From positions 1 through 58,109 of the IMG/VR virus record IMGVR_UViG_3300027983_000019: a DNA stretch of 58,109 nt; one strand, written 5' to 3'. The DNA is from a virus (Duplodnaviria; Caudoviricetes). The notes beneath the pieces were generated by a model, which saw only the letters and a program-made list of their open reading frames with translations, had not been told where the DNA came from and ran no database searches. The first letter of the stretch is position 1. Each line of letters opens with the position of its first letter. This document shows, one piece after another, positions 6,045 to 51,515 of this stretch. The position numbers were made by a program, and so were the translations under genes.

Positions 6045-6254
6045 ATGAATTGTATATTATTAATTATTGTATTAATATTAACATACCCCATAAGTCACTA
6101 TTTTATGAAAAAAGGTATGTATTTGGATTTAACTATGCCAACAAATAAAAAAAGATATAAAATATTGGGTAAATTATTCATAATCCCAATCATTAATTTG
6201 ATTGTTATGTTTATTTACATATGTTACACAATACACAAATTTAAAAGGATATGA
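6045..6254 (+). CDS. Small membrane protein
   Basis: Two hydrophobic stretches. Confidence 0.6.
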   Translation: MNCILLIIVLILTYPISHYFMKKGMYLDLTMPTNKKRYKILGKLFIIPIINLIVMFIYICYTIHKFKRI

Positions 6255-8299: not shown

Positions 8300-9514
8300 A
8301 TGATAATAAATAGTTTAATAGACTTAGATATCTACAAAATTACGATGATGCAACTAGCATATTTTAAACATCGTAATGTTGAAGTTGAATACAACTTTAA
8401 GAACAGGTCAAAAGATGTGAACCTTTTGGAGTACGTTAACATGGATGATTTAGTTAAGGAATTAGAACACGTAACCACGTTAAAAATGTCTGGTCGTGAA
8501 ATTGATACACTTAAAGAAACTGGATTATTTAAAGAGGAATTCTTGGATTTTTTAAGTAATCTAACACTACCTATGGTTAATGTAACAAAATCAATTCCAT
8601 TCAATACCTACGACATTAATGTTAGTGGTAATTGGTGTGATGTTATTTTGTGGGAGACATTAATACTATCCATCATTAATGAGTTATACCATAAGTCACA
8701 AATTAAAGATACATACCATATGGAAAGTACATACAATGAAGGTATGGATAGACTATATAGTAAGATTGAAAAGTTAAGGGGTGGTAAATATCGGTTTACT
8801 GAGTTCGGAACTAGACGAAGGTTTAGTAGAGAATGGCAGGAAATGGTTGTTAAAACACTTAAAAGGGAACACGATAACACCTTTGGTGGAATTGGTTTCC
8901 AAGGGACATCCAACGTTTATTTAGCAATGAAATTACACATACCATGTGTTGGGACATTCGCTCATGAAATGCCAATGGTTTATTCAGGTATTTACAATGA
9001 TGACCTAATCAGTTCACATAGAAAAATGTTAGATGACTGGTATGATTTTTATGGTAAGAGACTATCAATAGCTCTTACCGACACATATGGTAGTAAATTC
9101 TTTTTCGAGGACTTTACAGCAGAACAGGCAAGAGATTGGGATGGTTTCAGACAAGATAGTGGTGACCCATTTGTTTTCGGTGAAGAAGCTGAGGCTTTTT
9201 ATATCAGTAAAATGGTCGACCCAACAAATAAAGTTGTGGTATTCTCCGATGGACTTAATGTTGATAAAATTATAAAATTGGGTAATACGTTCAGGGGTAG
9301 AATTCAAACATTATTCGGATGGGGTACGAACTTATCAAATGATGTTGGATATCACACCTTATCAATGGTAGTTAAAGCGACGAAAGCTAATGGTCACGGA
9401 ACTGTTAAGTTGAGTGATAATCTGAATAAAGCTATTGGTACACCTGAAAACATAAAAAGGTTTACAGAAACCTTCGGATACACAAATAAAAATAAAGAAG
9501 AATTAATAAATTAA
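8300..9514 (+). CDS. pncB: Nicotinate phosphoribosyltransferase
   Basis: DLDIYKITMMQ, EFGTRRRFS, GTSNV, GTFAHE, LTDTYG, RQDSGDP, FSDGL and VKLSD motifs. Confidence 0.92.
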   Translation: MIINSLIDLDIYKITMMQLAYFKHRNVEVEYNFKNRSKDVNLLEYVNMDDLVKELEHVTTLKMSGREIDTLKETGLFKEEFLDFLSNLTLPMVNVTKSIPFNTYDINVSGNWCDVILWETLILSIINELYHKSQIKDTYHMESTYNEGMDRLYSKIEKLRGGKYRFTEFGTRRRFSREWQEMVVKTLKREHDNTFGGIGFQGTSNVYLAMKLHIPCVGTFAHEMPMVYSGIYNDDLISSHRKMLDDWYDFYGKRLSIALTDTYGSKFFFEDFTAEQARDWDGFRQDSGDPFVFGEEAEAFYISKMVDPTNKVVVFSDGLNVDKIIKLGNTFRGRIQTLFGWGTNLSNDVGYHTLSMVVKATKANGHGTVKLSDNLNKAIGTPENIKRFTETFGYTNKNKEELIN

Positions 9515-9516
9515 AT

Positions 9517-10152
9517 ATGGAAGACACAGTAAAACAAGGGCCAGAAGTAATAAAAACAGAAGTAGTTTACGATGGTTATTTTAAAGTAAATAAATTAACG
9601 GTTAAGGATGGGGAAGTTGAGTACACAAGAGAGGTTTTCGAAAGGGGTCACAGTGTTGCTGGAATAGTCTTCAACACCATAACAGAAAAATATCTTTTCG
9701 TTAAGCAATTTAGAGCACCGACAGATGGTGACATGATTGAAATAGTTGCTGGTTCGTTAGATATCCCTGGTGAGGCACCAGCCGAAGCATTAAAACGTGA
9801 AATTGTTGAGGAAATGGGTTATAAGGTTGATTTAATTAACCACCTAAGAGACTTTTATTCAACACCAGGAGCTTGTTCTGAAGTTGTTTCATTATTCTAC
9901 GTTGAAGTTAGTGAGAAAATCGGAGACGGTGGTGGTGTTGACAATGAAAACATTGAGGTTGTTGAAGTTGATTACCTTGGTGCTACTGGTACACTCTTTT
10001 GGAACATGGATATTGAAAATGGGGGTAATATGATACCACCATACCAATTGATTGATGCTAAGTCTATTGTGGCTGTTAGTATGGTTGAAACAAGTAGAAT
10101 TTTGGGTGATATGTCTGATGTACTTACACAGGCTAAAATGAGAACAATGTAA
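9517..10152 (+). CDS. Nudix hydrolase, ADP-ribose pyrophosphatase-like
   Basis: Nudix box AGSLDIPGEAPAEALKREIVEEMG; KQFRAP and YSTPG motifs. Confidence 0.85.
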   Translation: MEDTVKQGPEVIKTEVVYDGYFKVNKLTVKDGEVEYTREVFERGHSVAGIVFNTITEKYLFVKQFRAPTDGDMIEIVAGSLDIPGEAPAEALKREIVEEMGYKVDLINHLRDFYSTPGACSEVVSLFYVEVSEKIGDGGGVDNENIEVVEVDYLGATGTLFWNMDIENGGNMIPPYQLIDAKSIVAVSMVETSRILGDMSDVLTQAKMRTM

Positions 10153-13932: not shown

Positions 13933-14336
13933 TATTCATCATCAGTTTGTTCGTAATTTATTAATTCATCCTCTGTGGGTCTAACAAATGGTTCCTTACA
14001 TACAAAGGCTTCGTAATAATTGTGAGCCACAATTACCTCATAGTGTGGGTGTGAACCATCATCGTCTTGCCATTTTAAAGCAATAACGGTTGTTCCACCA
14101 CTACTTATTCTTGTTCTCCAATATTGGCTGTCGGGGTTGTTTTCAAAGTATGTTAAACATTTGTCTACCCATAGGTTAATATCTTCGTTAGAAGCTGTAG
14201 AACCACTAAACTTAAAGTAGTCATTCATAATTTCATTACTATCTTCTCTAATAATAAATTTACCATCTGGATAGATTGGTCTACCCATTTTTTCATGTTT
14301 GGTTGGTGTGAATTTGTGTCTAATTTCTGTATTCAT
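13929..14336 (-). CDS. Hypothetical protein
   Basis: 135-aa ORF. Confidence 0.7.
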   Translation of the reverse strand: MNTEIRHKFTPTKHEKMGRPIYPDGKFIIREDSNEIMNDYFKFSGSTASNEDINLWVDKCLTYFENNPDSQYWRTRISSGGTTVIALKWQDDDGSHPHYEVIVAHNYYEAFVCKEPFVRPTEDELINYEQTDDEY

Positions 14337-16150: not shown

Positions 16151-16204
16151 AATACATATTTATTGGGTTCCCTACAAATATACAATAATCATATTGAATG
16201 GCAA

Positions 16205-16396
16205 TAAAAAAAACCCACAGGTAATTAACCCATGGGTAGTGTTTTGTTGTAACCCAAACAAGGGACACTTACTTTTCGTTGAAGTGTCAAACGGGGTATT
16301 TGATATCGAGTTACCCCTCGACTAAATATTCCTCCAACTTAGTAAGGAACATAATTTCACTCCGTCGACTGAGTAAGGTACTATGTAACCTCTGAT
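16205..16396 (-). ncRNA. Unidentified structured ncRNA
   Basis: Own TATATTTG promoter (about 16398-16405), GC-richer paired segments, terminator at about 16205-16237, no credible ORF. Confidence 0.5.
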
Positions 16397-16449
16397 ACAA
16401 ATATAGTTATAATTCACTTACATGTCAAGTGTTTTATTGAAGATAATTA

Positions 16450-17208: not shown

Positions 17209-17682
17209 TTAATTTTTTAATAGGACATGGTCATATGTAATATAACTAAATCCCTCGTTTTTAATATTTTCTTTCTCAACCCAATTAATAGCATCAATAG
17301 TTGGAAATGTGGTGTCACCCTCAACCTCAATATGAATTTTGGTTAGGTGTATTCTATCAGCGAAATCGATTGCTCTTTTATAAATCTCACCACCACCGAT
17401 AATAAAAATATCTTTATCATTTCCAGCTTTTTTAATTGCCTTGGTTATACTATCCACAACTAAACACCCTTCAATGACTAAATCTTTATTCCTAGAAATA
17501 ACAATATTAAGTCTGTTTGGGAGTGGTTGTCCGATTGATTCATAGGTTTTTCGACCCATAATTACCACATTATCCGTTGTCAATCTCTTAAACCTTTTTA
17601 GGTCATCGGGTATGTACCAAGGCATTTTATTGTCAACACCTATTATACCATTATCCGAAACTGCTGCTATTAATGAAACCAT
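17209..17682 (-). CDS. folA: Dihydrofolate reductase
   Basis: MPWYIPDDLKRFK, IMGRKTYESI, LPNRLNIV, IIGGGEIY and GDTTFP motifs. Confidence 0.95.
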   Translation of the reverse strand: MVSLIAAVSDNGIIGVDNKMPWYIPDDLKRFKRLTTDNVVIMGRKTYESIGQPLPNRLNIVISRNKDLVIEGCLVVDSITKAIKKAGNDKDIFIIGGGEIYKRAIDFADRIHLTKIHIEVEGDTTFPTIDAINWVEKENIKNEGFSYITYDHVLLKN

Positions 17683-19786: not shown

Positions 19787-20040
19787 ATGATGATGAGCTT
19801 ACCCGACTTTCTGCTAGCCATTAGACAGTCTCCACTGTTTTAATGGTTCGATACCATTTGTCTTAAATCCTCTTACCCGACTATAATTAGGCAACAATCA
19901 CCCTAAATCTGTTTGAGTTTCACCCTGGGAAGTGCGTACGGCCCCTTTATTGAACTTAATCACTTTGGTAGTTACCTCCTTCCGTATGTTGTGGTGTGTC
20001 GAAGTTTCTCTCCGTGGAGCGGCATCTTCTCTGTCATCAT
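19787..20040 (-). ncRNA. rnpB: Compact RNase P RNA
   Basis: P1 ATGATGA/TCATCAT, P2 GATGCC/GGTATC after AGACAAAT, P4 elements GAGAAACTTCGAC and CAGAAAGTCGGGTA; promoter upstream; rnpA present in the window. Confidence 0.65.
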
Positions 20041-20095
20041 GTAATTTATTTATAACTTATCTTTAACATTACAAATATAGTGAATATTTATTAGT

Positions 20096-20908
20096 ATGGA
20101 ACTAAAAAGATTAAAAAAAATAATAAAAGAAGAAATAGGGGATTTTGACTGGGCACAAGATGTGTTAGCGGCTAGTCCAGATGATGAAGAGTTTGAATCA
20201 ATGCTTAACCACTTTGGGGCTAATTTGGTTTACGCTGAGGATTTTGAGGAAACGGATAGTTATGACTATCTTGGTGGGAAAACTTACAATGTTGATGGTG
20301 AAACTTGGGTGGTTTTAACCAAGGAACAAGCTGATGAAACATTAAAAGAGGATATACGAAGTCTTTATGAAGAGTTGGGTGTTGAAACAGTACGTGATAT
20401 ATCTGATTATGTTACTGTTTCCCAACAATGGATTGATGATTTTTGTGATGAGGAGGCTGACCATTATATGGATGATATAGATGAGGAAGACATACTCTCC
20501 AATTCTGATGATGAATACGAGGAAAGATATGATGACCTAACAGAGGAGATTGAGGAACTTGAGGACTTGTCTGATGATGATGAGTCCGTACAAACAAGAA
20601 TTTATGACCTAATAAAGCAAAGAGATAAAATTCTTGACGATGCTCGTGATGATGTAAGGGAAACCGAGTTGGTTGAATTACATAGATGTATGGAAGACCC
20701 AATTTATTGTTTAGTTAACGAAAAGGGTTGGTATTCTACTACTAAAGAATTACTTGATGCCATGTTATCACAATGGGGATGGGATATTGATGAAGAAAGA
20801 CTTGTTAACGACCTATTTCAAGAATCTAATTATGATTCATTGGGTTATGGTGAATACGCTGAAGAGATTGTTGAAGATACTGTTTATATATTGATTAGAA
20901 TGGATTAA
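20096..20908 (+). CDS. Highly acidic protein with the shared N-terminal tag (KKIIKEEIGDFDW)
   Basis: 270 aa, D/E-rich; TATTTAT upstream. Confidence 0.8.
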   Translation: MELKRLKKIIKEEIGDFDWAQDVLAASPDDEEFESMLNHFGANLVYAEDFEETDSYDYLGGKTYNVDGETWVVLTKEQADETLKEDIRSLYEELGVETVRDISDYVTVSQQWIDDFCDEEADHYMDDIDEEDILSNSDDEYEERYDDLTEEIEELEDLSDDDESVQTRIYDLIKQRDKILDDARDDVRETELVELHRCMEDPIYCLVNEKGWYSTTKELLDAMLSQWGWDIDEERLVNDLFQESNYDSLGYGEYAEEIVEDTVYILIRMD

Positions 20909-22397: not shown

Positions 22398-22436
22398 TAA
22401 TCACGGTGACTTATCACCGTGATATATACACATTTG

Positions 22437-22509
22437 TCTCCCCCACGGGCCTCGAACCCGTAACCTTTCCGTTAAAAGCGGAAAGCCCGTCCACTTGAGC
22501 TTCGAAGAG
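22437..22509 (-). tRNA. tRNA-Lys(TTT)
   Basis: Anticodon arm TTCCG-CTTTTAA-CGGAA. Confidence 0.8.
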
Positions 22510-22511
22510 AT

Positions 22512-22550
22512 AAAAAAAGGGACTAAGTTATGATTGACTTAGTCCCTTTT
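22512..22550 (-). terminator. Intrinsic terminator directly upstream of tRNA-Lys
   Basis: GGGACTAAGT/ACTTAGTCCC stem plus T-run. Confidence 0.8.
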
Positions 22551-22624
22551 AGGTGTGGTTGTAATTTTGTTACCTCCAATTAGTCAATCGATTTTCACGA
22601 CTAACCAATTATCGGTTAGTCTTG

Positions 22625-22834
22625 TTACTGTTTATATTTTAATTTATTTACCATAATTTCTACTTTGTTTTTTCTTTTAATCCTTTTAATCTTTAAAGCT
22701 CTTTTATACTTCTCGTTGAACTCTTTACGGAATTCACTTTTAATAACTTCTTTTTCTGAGTTACTTATTTTTCGTCTTAGTTTTAGTTCTTTTAGTAAAT
22801 ACCTCGTACTAAGACCTAATACTATTGTTAACAT
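22625..22834 (-). CDS. Lys-rich small ORF, candidate leader for tRNA-Lys
   Basis: 16 Lys in 69 aa; ends MVNKLKYKQ just before alternative hairpins. Confidence 0.55.
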   Translation of the reverse strand: MLTIVLGLSTRYLLKELKLRRKISNSEKEVIKSEFRKEFNEKYKRALKIKRIKRKNKVEIMVNKLKYKQ

Positions 22835-22856
22835 TTTGTTTTACTCTTTTAATTAG

Positions 22857-23613: not shown

Positions 23614-23662
23614 TTTTTGTACTTCCTTCTCTCATACGGAGTATAGTACTAACTAATACAGG

Positions 23663-25932: not shown

Positions 25933-26280
25933 ATGAACATCAAAAAAATAATAAAAGAAGAAATTAATAATTTCGATTGGTTTGATGAGGGTGAAACACC
26001 ACTATCGTGGTTAATCGATAATTTTGGGGATTTAAAACCAGTTGTTGATGGTAATAAAATCACTTATGTTAATGATAATAATAAAATATTCTTTTATTAT
26101 TATCAGGATAAAAAAAATGGATATTGTTATATTAAATATGGTGAAATATGGTCAGTTTTGGATTCCCGTTTTGGAATTAACGATACTGAAATTATGGAAG
26201 TTACAACCACATGGTTGGATGAGGTCTACGGAATAACGGGACTCATACCCATAAGTTACGGTTCCCATTGCAGCATCTAG
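25933..26280 (+). CDS. Array-associated small protein paralog
   Basis: MNIKKIIKEEINNFDW...WLDEVYGITGLIP-ISYGSHCSI. Confidence 0.9.
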   Translation: MNIKKIIKEEINNFDWFDEGETPLSWLIDNFGDLKPVVDGNKITYVNDNNKIFFYYYQDKKNGYCYIKYGEIWSVLDSRFGINDTEIMEVTTTWLDEVYGITGLIPISYGSHCSI

Positions 26281-26753: not shown

Positions 26754-26846
26754 TGGCGGAAGACAAGGGGATTGAACCCTCACTACCCATTAAGGGTAGA
26801 CTTGTTTAGCAGACAAGCTCAACGAACCAATATTTGACTATCTTCC
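26754..26846 (-). tRNA. tRNA-Ser(GCT)
   Basis: CTTGT-CTGCTAA-ACAAG, long variable arm, encoded CCA. Confidence 0.88.
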
Positions 26847-27755
26847 ATTAGTGTGTAGATTATTTATGTACTTAATAATTTTATTAGTTTCTTCTATTAT
26901 AAATTTTTTATGACTTGTTAAATCTTTAACTATATATAATTTTATACCTAATATCTCACATTCTTTTATTTTCTGTTTATCTTTTTCTTTTGTTTTAATT
27001 AAAGAACCATCACCTCTAATGTCTTTGTAGTGGTATATACCATTCCACTCAATACCAAAATTCAATGAGGGTATATAAACATCTAATTCACGATTACCCA
27101 TTAGTGTTAACCTATCATTAAATAAAATAGTTAAATTAGGGAAATAAGTGTTTAGTTCATTTTCTAAATATATTTCAGGTTTAGACCTAAGACCATTTAT
27201 TAATTTATTATTTATTTTATTTCTACACACACCACCACAATATTTTCTTCTATTTAATTGTGTTTTAGTTAACCATAATTTTTTATCACAAACCGGACAA
27301 GTAAACTCAACCTTTGGTTTTGTTAATTTTTCACTTATTTTTCGTTTTATTTCGTTACACTTTTTATCATCAAATCTATCACACAGTTTAACACCTTTTA
27401 AATTGACACTAACTGAGTTTCTTATATTAATTAACCCTTGCTTTGATAGTGTGTACACACTCAATACTCTATCTCTATTAGTTGACGAAGCCGAACAACT
27501 GTGTCCACAATATTTATTACCCCTCACTTCGTATGGTATTACCTCAGAACAATATTCACACATTTTTGGTTCAATGTAATACTTTTCCTTATTCTTTCGA
27601 AGTGTTGTTGTTGTATGTTCACGACCTAATCTCACCATTTTCTCATACGATTTACCTTTATTTGGGTTTTTATCACAATTGACTACATGTGACCCAGCGT
27701 GTTTAGGCGTTTTAATTTCCACCTCACCACAGAATTTACATTCATATTTACACAT
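26838..27755 (-). CDS. Putative free-standing homing endonuclease (zinc-finger repeats plus PD-(D/E)XK/Vsr-like domain) inside tRNA operon B
   Basis: Multiple CxxC and YCxxxC motifs; ELDVYIPSLNFGIEWNGIYHY. Confidence 0.75.
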   Translation of the reverse strand: MCKYECKFCGEVEIKTPKHAGSHVVNCDKNPNKGKSYEKMVRLGREHTTTTLRKNKEKYYIEPKMCEYCSEVIPYEVRGNKYCGHSCSASSTNRDRVLSVYTLSKQGLINIRNSVSVNLKGVKLCDRFDDKKCNEIKRKISEKLTKPKVEFTCPVCDKKLWLTKTQLNRRKYCGGVCRNKINNKLINGLRSKPEIYLENELNTYFPNLTILFNDRLTLMGNRELDVYIPSLNFGIEWNGIYHYKDIRGDGSLIKTKEKDKQKIKECEILGIKLYIVKDLTSHKKFIIEETNKIIKYINNLHTNGR

Positions 27756-28247: not shown

Positions 28248-28320
28248 GGTGTATGAGGAATTACGATATCCCGACCTTCGATTCCACAAACCGACACTCT
28301 TCCTCTGAGCTACACACACC
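28248..28320 (-). tRNA. tRNA-His(GTG)
   Basis: TCGGT-TTGTGGA-ATCGA, extra 5' G. Confidence 0.85.
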
Positions 28321-28324
28321 ATTT

Positions 28325-28495
28325 TTAATCCAGTTCAACAAAAATTATCATCTTACCTTTTTCTTTTTTAAACTTTAACTCCCCATGGTATCCACCTTGG
28401 TCAGCCTTTTCTCTGTGTTCATCCAAGATTTTATCAAAGTTATCTTGGAACTCCTTTATTTTTACCTCACCTATTTTTCTAACTAAATCACCCAT
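28325..28495 (-). CDS. Small hypothetical protein at the head of tRNA operon B
   Basis: MGDLVRKIGE...; start at 28495 lies downstream of the terminator. Confidence 0.55.
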   Translation of the reverse strand: MGDLVRKIGEVKIKEFQDNFDKILDEHREKADQGGYHGELKFKKEKGKMIIFVELD

Positions 28496-29843: not shown

Positions 29844-29912
29844 TAATTAAGGTTGGACTCGAACCAACGACCTCCCCTAAAGGATTGCTCTAACCAACTG
29901 AGCTACTTAATC
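29844..29912 (-). ncRNA. tRNA-like RNA with a shrunken anticodon arm
   Basis: Canonical D and T arms; anticodon arm reduced to TCC-TTTA-GGG. Confidence 0.6.
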
Positions 29913-30160
29913 CACCCTCTCATAACCGACTTGAGTAAGAACCTATTGAGGGAACACTAATATGATGTTTTCGGTTTTCACAGTATCTCCATGGGACTAA
30001 CCCATTGTGATTACCAAACCTCCACTAGTGGTTTTCTACTAGAAATCCGAACTGGTATCTTTGACTTTACTAATAATGGTTAGACACTAACGAGTAGGTA
30101 CTAAACACTTTCGAATTGGGGTAACTAAGATACAAAGTTACCATACACATCGATGATTTG

Positions 30161-30298: not shown

Positions 30299-30767
30299 TG
30301 GTACGGGTGGATGGACTCGAACCACCAAAAACTACTTTTCGGATTACTCTTACTTTTCGTCCACCTCGTCATGGGTTACCCCAAACAAGGCGTGTTTACC
30401 AATTTCACCACACCCGCTTATGTAGTTATTTAACATTGGTACGGAAGAAGGGACTCGAACCCCTAAAAACTACTTTTCAGATTACTCTTACTTTTTCGTT
30501 CACTACCCTAAAGAATAGCGTGTTTACCAATTTCACCACTTCCGTAGTTAAGTCTATACCCCCTCATCCCTCTTCTAATCTTGGGGGTTCCACCTTGTGG
30601 GGTGGATGTGTTTTCATCAAATTCCGTTCAGGTAACGTATTGATTACTATTATTGACTTAGTACATGAGGATGGAATCGAACCATCAAGAACTACTTTTC
30701 AGATTACTCTTACTTTTTCGTTCACTACCCTAAAGAATAGCGTGTTTACCAATTTCACCACTCATGT
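30299..30767 (-). ncRNA. Three related tRNA-Leu-like RNAs with aberrant anticodon arms and a conserved long A-rich variable region
   Basis: Copies at 30299-30417, 30437-30545 and 30662-30767 share GTGGTGAAATTGGTAAACACG and CGAAAA(A)GTAAGAGTAATCYGAAAAGTAGTT; acceptor and T stems covary. Confidence 0.7.
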
Positions 30768-31775: not shown

Positions 31776-31796
31776 TTATTGTTAATATATATTTAG

Positions 31797-33287: not shown

Positions 33288-34078
33288 TTATATTCGTAAT
33301 GTTTTTTCCATTTTCTAATCGAGTTATCACTAACACCATACTTTTTACCTGTACCAACATAACCTAATGTTTCTATCTCTTCAAGTAGTTGGTTATATGT
33401 TGGTCTAACAACCTTTCGTTTAGATACTTCACTACAACCAACACACCTTAAACTTTTATTGTTTATTTTACAACCACAACTACAAAAATTTTCTTTTTTT
33501 AACCTTTTATTATTTTTACCTGAGAAAGTATCTAAAGTGGTGTCACAGTTGGGACAAACTATTCTAAGATTCTCAATTCTATTGTCGGTATTAATGCCGT
33601 TTATATGGTCTAATATTAAAGACATCTTTTTACCCATCCATTCATCGTTTTGACCACACAACTCACATATTCTCTCTTTAATCCCTTCCTTATATAATCT
33701 TTTTTTTAGTGTTGACGTACCGTATGTACTACCACTAACTAAAATTTCCTCTGTTGGTATTTTTAACCTTTTCCTCGTTATACCATTATTAAAATGTGAT
33801 ATATCTAAATTATATAAATTCATATAATTTTTAATTATTTTATATGATGCTCCAGTGATTGTAATACCCAAATCAATACATAGTTCCCTAATACTTCCAT
33901 AATCTTTAATTTTAGAACTTAACACTTTTTCGTTATATACTCTATGGTTATATTCAATAAAATTATCATTAGCGTATACATAAACTTCATTAACAGGTGT
34001 TTTTAACATACTAGCCACCATAAACGGACCACACTTACTATAGTTTTTTTTAATAATATTTTTTTCATGTTCTCTCAT
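33278..34078 (-). CDS. HNH homing endonuclease inside tRNA operon C
   Basis: LILDHINGINTDNRIENLRIVCPNC; C-terminal HTH-like GKKYGVSDNSIRKW. Confidence 0.85.
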   Translation of the reverse strand: MREHEKNIIKKNYSKCGPFMVASMLKTPVNEVYVYANDNFIEYNHRVYNEKVLSSKIKDYGSIRELCIDLGITITGASYKIIKNYMNLYNLDISHFNNGITRKRLKIPTEEILVSGSTYGTSTLKKRLYKEGIKERICELCGQNDEWMGKKMSLILDHINGINTDNRIENLRIVCPNCDTTLDTFSGKNNKRLKKENFCSCGCKINNKSLRCVGCSEVSKRKVVRPTYNQLLEEIETLGYVGTGKKYGVSDNSIRKWKKHYEYKGV

Positions 34079-34136
34079 AATACTAACCTTTACATATAAA
34101 TACGTGTGGTATTGTAAAAGTTCGATATTTATTTAG

Positions 34137-46770: not shown

Positions 46771-47262
46771 CTATTCGAATTCTATGATTTTACTCCTAAC
46801 GTGACCATTTATTTCGGTTATTATAAAAAAGAAATAAGTTTTTCCGTACTGAACAAATGATGTAAACATGTATCCCTTGTCTTTTTTTAACATTTTTCGT
46901 ATATATGGGTCTCGTTGAATTGCGTCCCAATATATATTTTCATCCTCAGAATATTTATTATCAATATTAAAAATAATGTGTACTTTGGAACTGTCAATGT
47001 GTTTTACTAATAAATCTTCGAAGTGGTAATCCCACATAATCCCCCTTTCATAGTCACCAGGTATACTATCCCACCGTAATGGGTGTTCCCTATCAGCGTT
47101 TATTGAATTGTGTATCCGATTAGATGTCCCAGTCATAAAGATTAGACTATCCATTCTCGTCGTGTCGGCTGTATTAAACCACATTCTACTATACTCCTCT
47201 ATTTCTTGACCAAAAGATGGTGTTGAGGTTAATAAAATTAATACATAAAGTAACTTTTTCAT
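46771..47262 (-). CDS. Secreted hypothetical protein
   Basis: Signal peptide ending SFG-Q, a Bacteroidota-style cleavage site. Confidence 0.65.
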   Translation of the reverse strand: MKKLLYVLILLTSTPSFGQEIEEYSRMWFNTADTTRMDSLIFMTGTSNRIHNSINADREHPLRWDSIPGDYERGIMWDYHFEDLLVKHIDSSKVHIIFNIDNKYSEDENIYWDAIQRDPYIRKMLKKDKGYMFTSFVQYGKTYFFFIITEINGHVRSKIIEFE

Positions 47263-47284
47263 AATATTTATTGTTATACCTAAT

Positions 47285-47593
47285 TTAAATTTTTATTTCA
47301 GATAAAAAAACTTCAAAGGTCTCAACCGTTCTTTGTGATGGTACACCAAATTTATCAACATAATCCACATAGTCGTAGTTTTTATAAAACCGCCTAACGT
47401 CAACTACTCGATATTCTTTCTTAACACCTTTTTTGAATAGTTCCTTATTTGGGAACCTTTTGTTATACCAAATTTCATCCATCATTGTGTCAAAAAATAT
47501 GATTTCATTTATTGATGGTACACAAGATGTTGGTGTTGTTAAAATATTTTCATCCTCAAGCCAATAGGATATTTCTGTTTTATCTTTACTCAT
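47285..47593 (-). CDS. Hypothetical protein
   Basis: 102-aa ORF. Confidence 0.65.
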   Translation of the reverse strand: MSKDKTEISYWLEDENILTTPTSCVPSINEIIFFDTMMDEIWYNKRFPNKELFKKGVKKEYRVVDVRRFYKNYDYVDYVDKFGVPSQRTVETFEVFLSEIKI

Positions 47594-47733
47594 ATTAATT
47601 CATGTTAATTATAAAATGTCCATACTGTGTGATGAAAATGTCTATTTGTTCTAGTTCCGTTGGTTTCATAATGTAATATTAGTTATTATTTTTTAATTAA
47701 ACAAATTTAAATGTGTTTTGTGGTGTTGTTCCT

Positions 47734-48066
47734 TTAGTTAGGGTCATATAATAACCCATCACCATTAGTGTCAATGTGTACTAATTCTAATGTATCGTAA
47801 ACGATAGGTGAATTGGATTGTTTTGATGTCATTCTCGATTGAATTTCTTGTTCATTTTGCCTTGTTGTTTCTGACATTTTATTGTCAAATTTAAGGAAAT
47901 ATGAACCATAAGATTTGTAGTTAGGTCCTCTTTTTGCGTCGGATTCAACTACTTTTTCTGTTCTAAACTTGTAACGATACACATAAACATCTTTACTTTT
48001 TTGACAAGATATTATTGTTAATGTTATAATAACTATAAATACGATTTTTTTAAATGTGTTTTTCAT
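47734..48066 (-). CDS. Putative lipoprotein
   Basis: IIITLTIIS-CQK. Confidence 0.7.
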   Translation of the reverse strand: MKNTFKKIVFIVIITLTIISCQKSKDVYVYRYKFRTEKVVESDAKRGPNYKSYGSYFLKFDNKMSETTRQNEQEIQSRMTSKQSNSPIVYDTLELVHIDTNGDGLLYDPN

Positions 48067-48142
48067 AATGTTTATCTTTTAGTTTGTCTACAAATATACT
48101 TTACTAAATTGGATTGGCAATGATATTTATGATAAAAGTTTT

Positions 48143-48706
48143 ATGAAATTTGATTATATACACAGGTTCTTACCTATAAATGATGAGGTTATACCATTAA
48201 ATGAAGAAGTTATACCCGAAATGACACCTTTTAATGTACCACACTTATATGAAACAATGAGGGGAAATCGATTTATAATTCATTTTCCAGATGTTCTAAA
48301 TATAGAATCGTGGGTTGTGTCATCGATGGTTAGACCAAGTATCACAATGGGATTAAATGGTAGTCATGAATGGGATGAAATGGTGATTAAATTTAGGGAC
48401 CAAATAGGTGTATCAACTTCAAATAGATTATGGGAATTATTTATTGGTGTTACATCACAAACGGAAACACTAACCGTTCACGGTGATTTACTTAACGAAT
48501 ATCGTGATAGATATTCCGATATTAGAGTAAATGGGTTAACATTTAATTTAGAAATGTTAGACCCAAATGGTGTTGTCGTTAGTAAGTGGACAATTAATAA
48601 TTCTGAAATAATTAATTTTGGGTTTGGAGATTTGTCTTACGATGATGGTGGTGTAGTTGAATGTTCTATGACCGTTAAGCCACAGAACGTCCAACTACAT
48701 TTTTAA
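48143..48706 (+). CDS. Tail-tube-like (gp19-like) protein
   Basis: NRFIIHFP...RPSIT...WDEMVIKFRD...LEMLDPNGVVVSKW...FGDLSY. Confidence 0.7.
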   Translation: MKFDYIHRFLPINDEVIPLNEEVIPEMTPFNVPHLYETMRGNRFIIHFPDVLNIESWVVSSMVRPSITMGLNGSHEWDEMVIKFRDQIGVSTSNRLWELFIGVTSQTETLTVHGDLLNEYRDRYSDIRVNGLTFNLEMLDPNGVVVSKWTINNSEIINFGFGDLSYDDGGVVECSMTVKPQNVQLHF

Positions 48707-48999
48707 ACTAAAGTTGATTCTATTAATGTGAATTCATCTTTGTTAATAGCTTTGGAAATCCACCTATTCAATTCAGAACCTTTCATTTCATCGTAGAAAG
48801 TTGTTGTACCTAAATCATCGGATAAGGTATATTGTGGTTGGTCATAAACTGTATCACTCTCAACCACAGTTGGTATTGGGAATTCGTAGACATTTCCATC
48901 TACTTTAACTTTGTAGTAAATGTTTCCAGCTACATATCGACTTAATTTAGCTATTTCTTTTGACTTATATAAGTCTTTCTTTACATCATTAACATTCAT
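48703..48999 (-). CDS. Hypothetical protein at the end of tRNA operon D
   Basis: 98-aa ORF. Confidence 0.7.
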   Translation of the reverse strand: MNVNDVKKDLYKSKEIAKLSRYVAGNIYYKVKVDGNVYEFPIPTVVESDTVYDQPQYTLSDDLGTTTFYDEMKGSELNRWISKAINKDEFTLIESTLV

Positions 49000-49015
49000 A
49001 TCATTTAATTTTTAG

Positions 49016-49088
49016 AACCCCCGACTGGATTCAAACCAGTGACCGACGCTTTAGAAAAACGTTGCTCTATTCACTGAGCTACAGGGGC
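49016..49088 (-). tRNA. tRNA-Arg(TCT)
   Basis: ACGTT-TTTCTAA-AGCGT. Confidence 0.9.
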
Positions 49089-49100
49089 TTGTTTTTTTAG

Positions 49101-49174
49101 TATTCCCAACGGAATTCGAATCCGTAATCTTCACATTGAAAGTGTGGTGCCTTATCCAATTTGGCCATAGGAAT
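49101..49174 (-). tRNA. tRNA-Glu(TTC)
   Basis: CACA-CTTTCAA-TGTG. Confidence 0.88.
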
Positions 49175-49190
49175 ATTTAATTTTTAGAAC

Positions 49191-49224
49191 AAAAAAAATC
49201 CGATTATTTCTAATCGGATTTTTT
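49191..49224 (-). terminator. Attenuator terminator of tRNA operon D
   Basis: AAAATCCGATTA/TAATCGGATTTT stem plus T-run. Confidence 0.85.
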
Positions 49225-49249
49225 AAAGTTTATATAATACAATATTACT

Positions 49250-49312
49250 TCATATCCGATGTGAATAAGTCTCTCTTTCTTCTCTTCTCTCTATGTTAGT
49301 AATTATTGTCAT
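49250..49312 (-). CDS. Leader peptide D: MTIITNIERREERETYSHRI
   Basis: Translated by hand; core GAG AGA AGA GAA GAA AGA GAG; lies between a promoter (49340-49369) and a terminator. Confidence 0.88.
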   Translation of the reverse strand: MTIITNIERREERETYSHRI

Positions 49313-49388
49313 TGTTTCTTGTTTTTTATAAGTATACTACAAATATAGTAAAAGTATTCTAATTGTCAAGTATTATTTTTTTTATTTT

Positions 49389-50507
49389 TTACTCTTGTCC
49401 TTCTTGAATCACCATATTAACAACTTTACTTAATTTCTTTTTCATTTTATCAGCTTTATATTGAAACCTTTTTTCAAAAAATTCAAAGAACTTGATTGGG
49501 TTGTTTTTCACATTTTCGGGTACTTTTTCCATAAACGGGATTTCAATACCCATTTTCTTAAGATGTACTTGTGCATCCCGTATTATTAAATCCCACTGTT
49601 CAATTAATTTACCATATACATTATCACCCATTTCGGATTCAAATTTATCCATAAACTCTTTAGAGTTGAAACCTTTTAACATCTGATAATCTTTCCACGG
49701 TTCACTGGTTTTTAGAAACTTTAATGCTGATTCCTTATCAGTTGCATTGTGTTGTTTCATCGAATAATATAACTGAGGTACCCTAGCGTTAACCTCAAAA
49801 GATAATGAAAGGTACATAATGTGTAAAAATCTATTCCATGTTGGCATATCCGAAATTTTTAGTTTTTGTGGTAATACATTAAGTATAGTCTCTTTACCAA
49901 AACCAATTGTTTTTTTACCACCCAATAATTGTCTATATGTTTGGTATATGTGTGTTAGTTCATGACCAACAACAGGTGTTAATGTGTTGAATAAATTTTT
50001 TTCGTGGTCATTATTTTTTTCACTAATAAATGAAAATGGTATGTTAACGATAAATAATAATTCATTTTTTGGGAATATTGTTGCTTTACCTAATTTTTTT
50101 AATTGTATATTAGCTAAATCATCTGATGTGTAACTTTGTGTTGCCTCAAAATTCTTACCATAATTACCACCCTCAAAGACTACATCAGGTAAAACACACA
50201 ACTCAACAGTTAACTTTGGGTTATATAATGGTAAATTTTTGAATGTTTCGGATTTTAAAAATTCAAACATATCACCATCAAAGTGTATGTCAACCAACAT
50301 ATTAGTAAATTCTTTACCATTAATTTGATAAGCACCCTCATACATTGTGTATTGATTACCTCTCCACTCTATCTCACTACCTTCCCATTTATCTCGACTA
50401 ATAATAACATCAACCGTTGATACCACCATTTCTGATACATAACCAACCCATTTATCTATTGCTGTGGGTACACCCATTATCTCATTTATAAGTTCTTTCT
50501 TTTTCAT
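49389..50507 (-). CDS. Putative zinc metallopeptidase-like protein with an N-terminal LINE motif
   Basis: VGHELTHIYQ...FEVNAR; TATTTATA upstream. Confidence 0.65.
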   Translation of the reverse strand: MKKKELINEIMGVPTAIDKWVGYVSEMVVSTVDVIISRDKWEGSEIEWRGNQYTMYEGAYQINGKEFTNMLVDIHFDGDMFEFLKSETFKNLPLYNPKLTVELCVLPDVVFEGGNYGKNFEATQSYTSDDLANIQLKKLGKATIFPKNELLFIVNIPFSFISEKNNDHEKNLFNTLTPVVGHELTHIYQTYRQLLGGKKTIGFGKETILNVLPQKLKISDMPTWNRFLHIMYLSLSFEVNARVPQLYYSMKQHNATDKESALKFLKTSEPWKDYQMLKGFNSKEFMDKFESEMGDNVYGKLIEQWDLIIRDAQVHLKKMGIEIPFMEKVPENVKNNPIKFFEFFEKRFQYKADKMKKKLSKVVNMVIQEGQE

Positions 50508-50525
50508 ACACTTATAAATATGTGA

Positions 50526-51515
50526 TTACTCCATAGATGTGTTATATTTTAAATTCCTTAACATCTCTTCTTGTTCATTTGATAGTGCATTAGGCATCAC
50601 CCCATCAACTGTGATGAACAAATTACCCCTAACACCTGAACGACCATCCATTAATCCTTTAGCTATTAATCTAAAAACTTTATTAGGTGGACACAATTTA
50701 TCAACCTTTATTTTAACTTTACCATCAAGTGTTATGATTTCTAATTCAGTACCCAACATTAGGTCAATTATATTAACTTTTTCTCTTTTGGTAATGTTAA
50801 GTCCGTCGATTTCAAATAATGGGTGTTTTTTCAATACAATCTTAAAAATAACATCACCATGGTTTGAACCATTTACTTGATTACCGATACCACTCATTAT
50901 AATGTTACCACCCGTCATACCTTTCGGGATGTTAATGGTTACATTTTTAATAGATTTTTTATTACCTGAACCATGACAACCACCACATTGTTTGGTGAAA
51001 ACACTACCCCCACCATTACAGGTATTACAAATGAAACTATGTAGATAATCAGTAAGATAACCCTTACCATGACAATGTGGGCAAACCATAGGTTCCTTAC
51101 CCCCCTTACCTGAACAATCATCACAAGACGTTGATTGGTTAAATGAAACTTCCTTATCAACACCACTAAAGACTTCCTCCAATGTAACCTCAACAACTAA
51201 TTCTATAGGTCTGACACTTCTTTTAGTGAATTGGTTACCAAATCCACCAAACCCACTAAATGGGTTATTATTGAATGGATTACGTCTTTGTTTTTCGGGT
51301 TCTTTTCTTTTACCAGTCAAAATTTCATAAGCTTCATTCACTTTTGACATTTTCTCAACAGCGTCATCGTCTTTGTTGATGTCGGGATGGAATTTTTTTG
51401 ACATTTTTCTATATGCCTTTTTTATATCACCCTCAGATGCATTATTTTTTAAACCTAAAACTTCATAATATTGATTCATAGTATTAAACTTATTCATATA
51501 GATTTGTAATGTCAA
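50526..51515 (-). CDS. dnaJ: DnaJ chaperone
   Basis: J domain with HPD, G/F region, four CxxCxGxG repeats; true start probably 51479. Confidence 0.93.
   Translation of the reverse strand: MTLQIYMNKFNTMNQYYEVLGLKNNASEGDIKKAYRKMSKKFHPDINKDDDAVEKMSKVNEAYEILTGKRKEPEKQRRNPFNNNPFSGFGGFGNQFTKRSVRPIELVVEVTLEEVFSGVDKEVSFNQSTSCDDCSGKGGKEPMVCPHCHGKGYLTDYLHSFICNTCNGGGSVFTKQCGGCHGSGNKKSIKNVTINIPKGMTGGNIIMSGIGNQVNGSNHGDVIFKIVLKKHPLFEIDGLNITKREKVNIIDLMLGTELEIITLDGKVKIKVDKLCPPNKVFRLIAKGLMDGRSGVRGNLFITVDGVMPNALSNEQEEMLRNLKYNTSME

Follow-up and report, generated by a model that had tools for sequence, protein, structure and literature searches.

The sequence considered here, referred to throughout as the window, is a 58,109-nucleotide (nt) stretch of a tailed phage (IMG/VR record IMGVR_UViG_3300027983_000019), and all positions are given in window numbering. 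The window contains four tRNA operons (A, B, C and D), and operon D, which encodes a tRNA-Glu and a tRNA-Arg, is the main subject of this analysis. Upstream of the two tRNA genes lies a compact unit consisting of a promoter, a short leader open reading frame (ORF) and an intrinsic terminator, with all operon D features on the minus strand (Table 1). The leader is the sole ORF of at least 20 amino acids (aa) between promoter and terminator. A preliminary description of this DNA had reported a leader with the peptide run ERREERE directly upstream of tRNA-Glu(TTC) and tRNA-Arg(TCT); the ORF list and the sequence confirm the leader at that place, and the tRNA pair was recovered both by ARAGORN and by the Rfam tRNA model.

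Table 1. Features of operon D and of the gene that follows it, in window numbering.
Feature	Position	Strand	Description	Source
Promoter	49340-49369	-	TTG(ACA) element 49369-49364, 19-nt spacer, -7 box TATATTTG 49347-49340	Consensus scan
A-rich 5' untranslated region without Shine-Dalgarno sequence	49313-49335	-		Sequence
Leader ORF MTIITNIERREERETYSHRI	49250-49312	-	20 codons and TGA	ORF list and sequence
Control codons 8-14	49271-49291	-	GAG AGA AGA GAA GAA AGA GAG (E R R E E R E)	Sequence
Antiterminator 5' strand ATCGGAT	49254-49260	-	Codons 18-20 (CAT CGG ATA), 1 nt before TGA	
Intrinsic terminator	49191-49224	-	14 pairs	Terminator scan
Terminator arms	5' arm 49224-49211; loop 49210-49207; 3' arm 49206-49193	-	Loop GAAA	
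tRNA-Glu(TTC)	49100-49174	-	Reads GAA and GAG	ARAGORN; Rfam RF00005, 62.1 bits
tRNA-Arg(TCT)	49015-49088	-	Reads AGA and AGG	ARAGORN; Rfam RF00005, 58.6 bits
98-aa ORF	48703-48999	-	Starts 16 nt past tRNA-Arg	ORF list

At the level of sequence, this region has five of the six defining features of the attenuator class: a promoter, a short ORF, a cluster of cognate control codons, an intrinsic terminator and a mutually exclusive antiterminator. The antiterminator strand AUCGGAU begins 11 nt past the last control codon (codon 14), and the UGA stop codon occupies 49252-49250. The overlap of ATCGGAT with the last leader codons and its complementarity to the terminator, both pointed out previously, are borne out by the sequence, in which ATCCGAT (49219-49213) of the terminator 5' arm is the exact reverse complement. 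An eight-T run (49198-49191) closes the terminator, and its first six T's double as the end of the 3' arm. Operon D probably represents a ribosome-mediated (leader-peptide) transcription attenuator of the trp/his type, controlling two phage tRNA genes by tRNA supply, a reading to which a rough probability of 0.75 is assigned. The tRNA-Glu and tRNA-Arg genes would then probably be transcribed only upon shortage of those tRNAs.

In the proposed mechanism, host RNA polymerase would start at a Bacteroidota-type sigma-A promoter, at a predicted position of about 49335, and a ribosome would translate the 20-codon leader. When charged tRNA-Glu(UUC) or tRNA-Arg(UCU) is scarce, the ribosome would be expected to stall within the run GAG AGA AGA GAA GAA AGA GAG. 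Taking ribosome footprints as they are generally known, a stall with any of codons 8-13 in the A site would leave AUCGGAU free, and for a stall at codon 14 the motif would lie about at the ribosome edge. Free AUCGGAU could then pair with AUCCGAU of the 5' arm, so that the terminator would not form and polymerase would enter the genes for tRNA-Glu and tRNA-Arg. With both tRNAs plentiful, the ribosome would reach the UGA and cover AUCGGAU, the 14-base-pair (bp) terminator would form, and transcription would stop at the T run. The circuit is predicted to exert negative feedback on charged tRNA-Glu and tRNA-Arg(UCU), with host and phage molecules forming a single pool. Candidate causes of depletion of that pool include the disappearance of host tRNAs following shut-off, defences that cleave tRNAs, and the codon demand of the phage itself. 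The same design may hold for the other three tRNA operons of the window and for related jumbo phages, with each leader acting as a codon checklist of the tRNAs in its operon.

The codon match in leader D can be assessed against the composition of the genome. Seven of the 19 post-start codons are read by the Glu and Arg tRNAs, and these seven are consecutive; the background is 0.10, taken from the long ORFs of this genome (GAA 0.053, GAG 0.021, AGA 0.020 and AGG 0.008), which gives a binomial P of 0.0018. The control codons are held in a 23-nt purine tract, the longest of 10 tracts of at least 15 nt on both strands of the window, and any frame of such a tract codes for Glu, Arg, Lys or Gly only. 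Low complexity is thus a fair objection for D alone. If it held, the ORF and hairpin might be an independent small gene or a leftover, with a purine tract that matches by chance and tRNAs that are expressed separately, and a strain variant in which GAA is changed to AAA, leaving the tract purine, is in keeping with this idea. However, the in-frame reading of the tract is 7/7 cognate whereas the two other frames give 4/6 each, and the match to the Glu/Arg set is 0.37 for leader D and 0.00, 0.04 and 0.03 for the other three leaders of the window. The objection falls in the face of the comparative data set out below: in-frame Arg/Glu blocks persist in five other lineages, leaders match their own tRNAs in 22 further units as well as in the non-purine cases A, B and C, and the exact promoter motif is found in the window only before tRNA operons. 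A chance match is accordingly given a very slight probability.

A promoter-leader-terminator unit precedes each of the four tRNA operons of the window. The 17-nt promoter motif CTTTTACTAnATTTGTA, with 0 mismatches, has exactly four sites in the window, each before a tRNA-operon leader, and the four upstream regions are near-identical in alignment from about -45 to the ATG, beyond which the ORF bodies diverge. The same general promoter type is present elsewhere in the window before ordinary genes or unexplained RNAs, there without a leader-plus-terminator unit. Leaders A, B and C are each enriched in the amino acids served by the tRNA array that follows. Leader A (MITNKPTYKPSDAKAGTDCGYNHNCRDLRY) precedes tRNAs for Tyr, Pro, Asp, Gly, Ala, Cys and Lys; leader B (MKTNNNIHNINISRNSWITKMTRCV) precedes those for Asn, Ser, Ser, Ile and Arg(ACG), together with a tRNA-like gene found by Rfam alone; and leader C (MKTLTNISLFTLTQVFMVQLQTVFGFGVSNVS) precedes those for Gln, Thr, Phe, Thr, Val, Leu, Leu and Met. 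When each of the four leaders was compared with each of the four tRNA sets, the diagonal values were 0.37, 0.65, 0.42 and 0.55, and no off-diagonal value exceeded 0.25.

Homologs of the 372-aa protein encoded upstream of D adjoin the same tRNA pair elsewhere, in five other lineages once duplicates are removed. All five retain, in frame, a block of Arg(AGA) and Glu codons, together with a terminator and a copy of its 3' arm inside the leader. The leader in G003 (MTKATTYIVLTHREERERYLTNSRSGCRI), where the neighbouring protein is 35% identical to the 372-aa protein of the window, has the stretch H R E E R E R, with the codons AGA GAG GAG AGA GAA, and is followed by Glu and Arg(TCT). The leaders in G007 (MTHRFFKIRERRESTKSRTGCRM; AGA GAG AGA AGA GAA) and G008 (MTFRFFEIRERRESTKSRTECRV; AGA GAA AGA AGA GAA) have blocks that differ by one synonymous GAG/GAA change. 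The leader in G009 (MTFRFFKIREKIDLKNRTECHM; AGA GAG ... AAT ... GAG) precedes Glu, Asn and Arg; its control codons are fewer, one AAT is present, and its antiterminator is weaker. The leader in G005 (MKNTNIISLLERLERFSLMEMV; TTA TTA GAA AGA TTA GAG AGA ... ATG GAG ATG) precedes Leu(TAA), Glu, Arg(TCT) and Met, and TTA and ATG codons have entered it where Leu(TAA) and Met have joined the Glu/Arg operon. In another relative, L068, Glu and Arg(TCT) belong to a ten-tRNA operon with a leader in which GAG occurs twice and AGA once. Loss of the ORF in homologs that retain both tRNAs, which the preliminary description had named as grounds for rejecting its reading, was not seen; all five other lineages with adjacent Glu(TTC) and Arg(TCT) keep the leader, which favours the attenuator reading.

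Units of relatives were drawn from the matches listed in a scan of IMG/VR for the promoter motif, which is present in at least 112 stretches, and whole records of relatives were also examined. In 16 of 118 loci, a script detected a tRNA no more than 700 nt downstream of the motif. At least 22 further promoter-leader-terminator-tRNA units were detected in related IMG/VR phage contigs, and the curated set comprises 26 leader/operon units from 13 sequence sets. Two units, at 17338 in G003 and 3635 in L052, were entered by hand because their terminators carry a mismatch. Three automatic candidates were dropped as false, namely G004 at 83209 and, both within tRNA-like sequence, L068 at 3861 and L081 at 3320; a locus in L056, with the promoter motif followed by a 68-aa ORF and a doubtful tRNA-SeC call, was rejected as a leader unit. 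Two units cut by contig ends (G008 at 26129 and L081) are included in the count of cognate codons and left out of the swap, isoacceptor and anticodon-coverage tests. The tRNA sets used in the counts are those of ARAGORN only, without the extra tRNA-like genes that Rfam finds in the window.

Across the 26 units, leader composition follows the tRNAs of the operon. At the level of codon boxes, 380 of 749 leader codons are cognate, against 204.7 expected, and under strict wobble rules the count is 336 against 167.2 expected. Swapping leaders among the 24 complete units gave a mean excess of 0.14 (standard deviation 16.8, maximum 77.3), and none of 20000 shuffles reached the observed excess of 150.1; likewise, of 159 distinct operon anticodons, 151 are matched by one or more codons of the leader of their operon, against a shuffled mean of 103.3 (maximum 125, with none of 5000 reaching 151), but these permutation counts overstate independence because the units share descent. 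Differences between leaders nevertheless go along with differences in their tRNA sets. Leader A of the window contains two Pro codons, and its array a tRNA-Pro, both of which are missing from the counterpart in G001; a C-type leader in G004 has two Pro codons and a tRNA-Pro; and the leader in G006 has extra Met codons along with a tRNA-Met that its counterpart in G005 lacks.

A stalled ribosome is blind to the difference between a missing and an uncharged tRNA, as is generally known from trp/his attenuation, and large leaders such as the 39-codon ORF in L068 sample nearly all amino acids. The same attenuator might therefore respond to amino-acid supply, that is, to tRNA charging under starvation, with tRNA output as a by-product of a sensor of slow translation. 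However, extra tRNA cannot relieve amino-acid starvation, only tRNAs are regulated, and leader composition tracks the anticodon list (the 151 of 159 above) and shifts as tRNAs join or leave operons. Starvation as the signal is considered unlikely, and a response to the supply of the tRNAs themselves is preferred.

The antiterminator was evaluated by computing, for each unit, the best duplex of the leader with the terminator 5' arm, against all 26 terminators. In all 26 units the best partner of the terminator 5' arm lies within the 3' part of the ORF, and each leader 3' end holds a copy of the 3' arm of its own terminator. In 9 units the top-ranked of the 26 terminators is the unit's own, and in 14 it is within the top three; the rank sum is 143 against 351 expected. 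For D, the duplex with its own terminator is -9.2 versus a mean of -4.9 with the other 25, a rank of 1 of 26. A compensatory change was found in the C family, in which TTCGGGTTTG in the window goes with CAAACCCGAA, and CTCGGGTTCTT in G003 goes with AAGAACCCGAG. The full-length D fold contains the terminator (-27.5 kcal/mol, z = -4.09; none of 200 shuffles was as stable), the hairpin of which has a value of -14.5 alone, and it also includes weak pairing of codons 2-5 with the segment just past the stop codon. When the terminator 3' arm is removed, the predicted fold is an AUCGGAU:AUCCGAU helix stacked on a small inner hairpin, at -11.9 kcal/mol.

These results bear on an alternative in which the leader does sense codons but acts through Rho-type polarity, through ribosome-dependent processing or through the stability of the tRNA precursor, with the hairpin merely ending the leader transcript. 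The antiterminator is short in most units (6-10 bp), the rank of the own terminator is mediocre in several (14, 13, 18, 17 and 14 of 26), and a conserved motif, GTTCTTTGA, which lies between the terminator and the first tRNA, could serve in processing or as an additional start. Against this stand the 5'-arm partner in the 3' part of every one of the 26 ORFs, the 9 units in which the own terminator is best, the compensatory changes, and the D fold that adopts the antiterminator when the 3' arm is taken away. An output of this kind is judged improbable, and transcription antitermination is retained as the preferred output.

The conserved motif has a distribution of its own. As GTTCTTTGAnnTATTGG, it lies ahead of many tRNAs at a distance of 17-33 nt, both past leader terminators and within arrays, and in the form GTTCTTTGA(C/T/A)nTATTGG it occurs, for example, at 34570-34545 on the minus strand of the window, at 2393 in L119, and in L082 and L068, as well as before other structured-looking RNAs. 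Operon D retains only the GTTCT of GTTCTTTGAnnTATTGG. Downstream of the tRNA-Glu of G007 and G008, a motif resembling GTTCTTTGA is followed by a shared, conserved G+C-rich stretch (L135, about 6150-6209; L145, about 6160-6200), and in both of these relatives Glu is separated from Arg(TCT) by further sequence that is tRNA-like or structured RNA. Motifs of the GTTCTTTGA type could be a processing signal, or a phage-specific or second start.

Strain variants provide a measure of constraint on the unit. Contigs of two further runs (X4 and X5) are near-identical to the window. Over the 214 nt that hold the promoter, leader and terminator (49175-49388), the two comparisons have 1 and 0 substitutions, and both contigs share one 1-nt insertion upstream of the TTG element. 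The adjoining coding sequence has 11 substitutions in 312 nt and 13 in 290 nt. The smaller number of substitutions suggests that the promoter-leader-terminator unit is under stronger constraint than the neighbouring gene.

The signals for expression in operon D resemble those of Bacteroidota. In two studies, a -7 box of TAnnTTTG or TAHHTTTG at -12 to -5 is given as the Flavobacterium sigma-A consensus (PMC9723704, PMC6847099); such bacteria initiate translation without a Shine-Dalgarno sequence, aided by A at -3, -6, -12 and -13, and A at -3, -12 and -13 is a positive determinant of initiation in F. johnsoniae (PMC6847099). The same sources report leader-peptide attenuation inferred upstream of amino-acid operons in F. 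psychrophilum (PMC9723704, PMC6847099). The D promoter, with its TTG, 19-nt spacer and TATATTTG, fits the Flavobacterium consensus at the level of motifs. The leader ATG (49312) is preceded by A at -3, -12 and -13, and across the 26 leaders A is present at -3 in 20, at -6 in 18 and at -12 in 22. Based on the -7 box and the A-rich initiation region, a Bacteroidota host may be suggested for the phage.

Several observations weigh against the attenuator reading. Transcription start, translation of the ORF, termination, read-through, the direction of the switch and its trigger are predictions made from sequence, and a look-up of RNA runs listed no run that contains the locus. A 7-bp antiterminator (-9.2, or -11.9 for the alternative fold) faces a 14-bp terminator (-14.5), and the terminator wins at equilibrium; since the two folds are close in energy and the terminator is favoured, the choice of state would have to be kinetic, as in classical attenuators. 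The D fold contains no convincing 1:2 pause or anti-antiterminator hairpin, and no conserved helix of this kind was found. If GTTCTTTGAnnTATTGG were a second promoter, the attenuator would be bypassed. The lone leader substitution among the strain variants (49282, in X4 only) converts codon 11 from GAA to AAA, a Lys codon, with the purine tract kept, and so speaks against every control codon being strictly conserved.

The relatives contribute further difficulties, in addition to the shared descent mentioned above. The D-type leader in G003 is a weak homolog in this respect, with 5 of 28 codons cognate (P = 0.10), and that in G009 has 5 of 21 (P = 0.27) and a rank of 17 of 26 for its own terminator. 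A second unit in L082 has no enrichment (P = 0.67), and a lone tRNA-Arg(TCT) in L082 is an exception in having no leader. At 14240 on the plus strand of G003 (equivalent to L062 2329), an exact promoter motif lies directly before the tRNA-Leu(TAA) of a C-type array without leader or terminator, from which it follows that at least one tRNA has an unattenuated promoter of the same class. The preliminary description had also argued for a match at the level of isoacceptors, with AGA as the only control Arg codon in D and CGT in leader B for its tRNA-Arg(ACG). The three Arg codons of the D control block are indeed all AGA, but leader D has an extra, non-cognate CGG within the antiterminator, and leader B has one AGA besides its one CGT. 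The isoacceptor-level match was not established, as the pooled Arg test gave an odds ratio of 3 (p = 0.26); over the Arg, Leu, Ser and Ile codon boxes the odds ratios were 3, 3, 4.3 and 2.25 (p = 0.26, 0.58, 0.18 and 0.58). With these pooled ratios not significant and AGA the commonest Arg codon in the long ORFs of this genome anyway (2.0% versus 0.7% for all CGN), a match at this level is unproven. The attenuator itself, as a reading of the sequence, withstood every computational test that was run.

The leaders share one feature that is independent of their coding content. In 20 of 26 leaders the pentamer ACATA lies 14-19 nt past the A of the start codon, in any reading frame (49296-49292 in D), at a distance from the promoter that ranges from 39 to 63 nt. 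Given its independence of frame and its varying distance from the promoter, ACATA may act at the nucleotide level as a signal linked to the start codon, or may be left over from a common ancestor.

Downstream of operon D, the terminator scan found no terminator between tRNA-Arg and the 98-aa ORF (49015 to 48999). This ORF has no PHROG match and is not kept after the tRNA pair in G003. It is possibly co-transcribed with the tRNAs upon read-through, and its membership in the unit is uncertain. A PHROGs search with four neighbouring proteins gave a sole match, to a tail tube protein for a 187-aa ORF, and nothing bearing on the leader.

The other tRNA operons have additional features, all of those in the window being on the minus strand. 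In operon A, a tRNA-Lys (22436-22509) has its own terminator directly upstream, preceded by a Lys-rich ORF of 70 aa with about 17 Lys residues (22510-22840 for the whole region). Three copies of GACTAA and two of TTAGTC, which could pair as 1:2, 2:3 and 3:4, lie between the stop codon of this ORF and the terminator of the tRNA-Lys, and the region may be a second, internal, Lys-sensing attenuator within operon A. In operon B, a 56-aa ORF (MGDLVRKIGEV..., 28305-28475) is located between the leader terminator and the first tRNA-like gene, and read-through of this operon would also express the small protein. The arrays of single operons are interrupted by ORFs at 26850-27750 and 33300-34080, and in the relative L006 at about 8900-9790; these are Cys- and Lys-rich and by eye look like homing endonucleases.

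Rfam detects five tRNA-like genes on the minus strand that ARAGORN missed (28248-28319, 29844-29912, 30302-30417, 30440-30545 and 30662-30767), and a length of 106-116 nt in three of them suggests inserts or introns. By eye, a GTG (His) anticodon loop can be read in the gene at 28248-28319, which would be in keeping with the His codon of leader B. In the other direction, four ARAGORN calls are not listed by Rfam: Tyr at 23661, Ser at 26754, Cys(aca) at 30160 and Met at 31796. Two further sites with the same -7 promoter type, at about 16182-16437 and 19856-20111 on the minus strand, are followed only by ORFs of at most 13 aa and at most 22 aa, respectively, and by about 200 nt of G+C-richer, structured-looking sequence, which at 16182-16437 ends in a hairpin and T run. 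These two stretches have no Rfam match and are candidate non-coding RNAs.

Searches for relatives of the D region by other routes returned little. Among GenBank phages, a DNA search with 47000-51000 gave tRNA-sized matches only (2% of the query) and no close relative, and tblastn with the 372-aa protein gave one remote match at 25.5% identity and no cultured relative; that match is an unannotated 635-kilobase (kb) uncultured phage with no tRNA within 4 kb. A search for homologous loci with the 372-aa protein alone found none. A two-sequence alignment of the family (A2) found 17 loci, 8 with tRNA-Glu downstream in the flank examined and 9 without a tRNA, and a metagenome scan with A2 found 7 loci, with no tRNA in the DNA covered. 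A DNA search with the Glu/Arg tRNA pair of the window had no match in G001-G005, and the pair in G003 was located by ARAGORN on the whole record. Near-complete relatives have lengths of 318 kb (96% complete) and 380 kb (100%), and judging by these the window is probably a fragment of a jumbo phage genome.

A broader interpretation is more tentative. It is possible, at less than even odds, that Bacteroidota jumbo phages have a demand-driven circuit of tRNA supply in which loss of any tRNA, via host tRNA decay after shut-off or defences such as anticodon nucleases, would switch on the operon that replaces it, with leaders serving as sensor and counter-measure together. If this circuit is real, its units would be the first attenuators known to regulate tRNA genes via tRNA sensing. 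Both the regulation of phage tRNA genes and the reason for their presence have long been in question. Should the attenuator reading be correct, tRNA genes would be under direct, species-specific feedback from the tRNA pool, with the oldest known RNA switch logic in an undescribed role, and leader-peptide attenuation would be extended to phages and to the sensing of many amino acids. Leader sequences would then be a readable record of the tRNAs that the phage treats as limiting, the operons would be a natural reporter of tRNA depletion in Bacteroidota, and the replacement of infection-lost tRNAs by phage tRNAs would become directly testable.

Phage tRNA clusters have been discussed as codon supplements or as replacements of tRNAs lost to defence (PMC10264068). 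That work concerns tRNA sequence and function and offers a reason for on-demand supply, and no cis sensor is described in the part of it that was available. In the literature searched, no leader peptide or attenuator before tRNA genes is described, although subscription journals and supplements were outside that scope and a prior description is possible. A scan of the whole window with Rfam cmscan at gathering thresholds gave 24 matches, all 24 to the tRNA family RF00005 and none to a curated leader family; the T-box riboswitch likewise had no match in the window.

Leader-peptide attenuators of amino-acid biosynthesis are well known from Proteobacteria, with trpL, hisL, pheL, thrL, leuL and ilv as examples, and the background to this mode of regulation is covered in PMC2965389. 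Operon D resembles leaders of the trpL/hisL type in its promoter, its ORF with control codons, its exclusive antiterminator and terminator, the overlap of the ORF end with the antiterminator, and a predicted logic in which stalling leads to read-through. It differs in that tRNAs rather than enzymes are controlled, and the molecule sensed would thus be the product class itself, because the regulated genes are tRNAs. Most of the phage leaders are checklists of up to 13 tRNA species, unlike the runs of one or two amino acids in trpL/hisL-type leaders. Operon D is also phage-borne, and it has no clear 1:2 hairpin.

Aminoacyl-tRNA synthetase genes can be controlled in a related manner, as in pheST with its pheM leader. 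A leader peptide has also been described as the attenuator of a hisS paralog (PMC2965389). The phage units are like these in that attenuation would act on part of the translation machinery devoted to the same codons. They differ in their targets, a synthetase for one amino acid in a cellular genome in the pheST and hisS-paralog cases versus tRNA genes, often many, in the phage units. The T-box needs neither a ribosome nor an ORF, since it binds uncharged tRNA directly by means of a specifier codon and the T-box sequence. As in a T-box, the state of a specific tRNA is predicted to decide between terminator and antiterminator upstream of translation-related genes, but the codons in D appear to be carried by a leader ORF. 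Relative to classical leaders, what seems to be new in the phage units is the use of tRNA genes as the target, the multi-amino-acid checklist in the leader and carriage by a phage.

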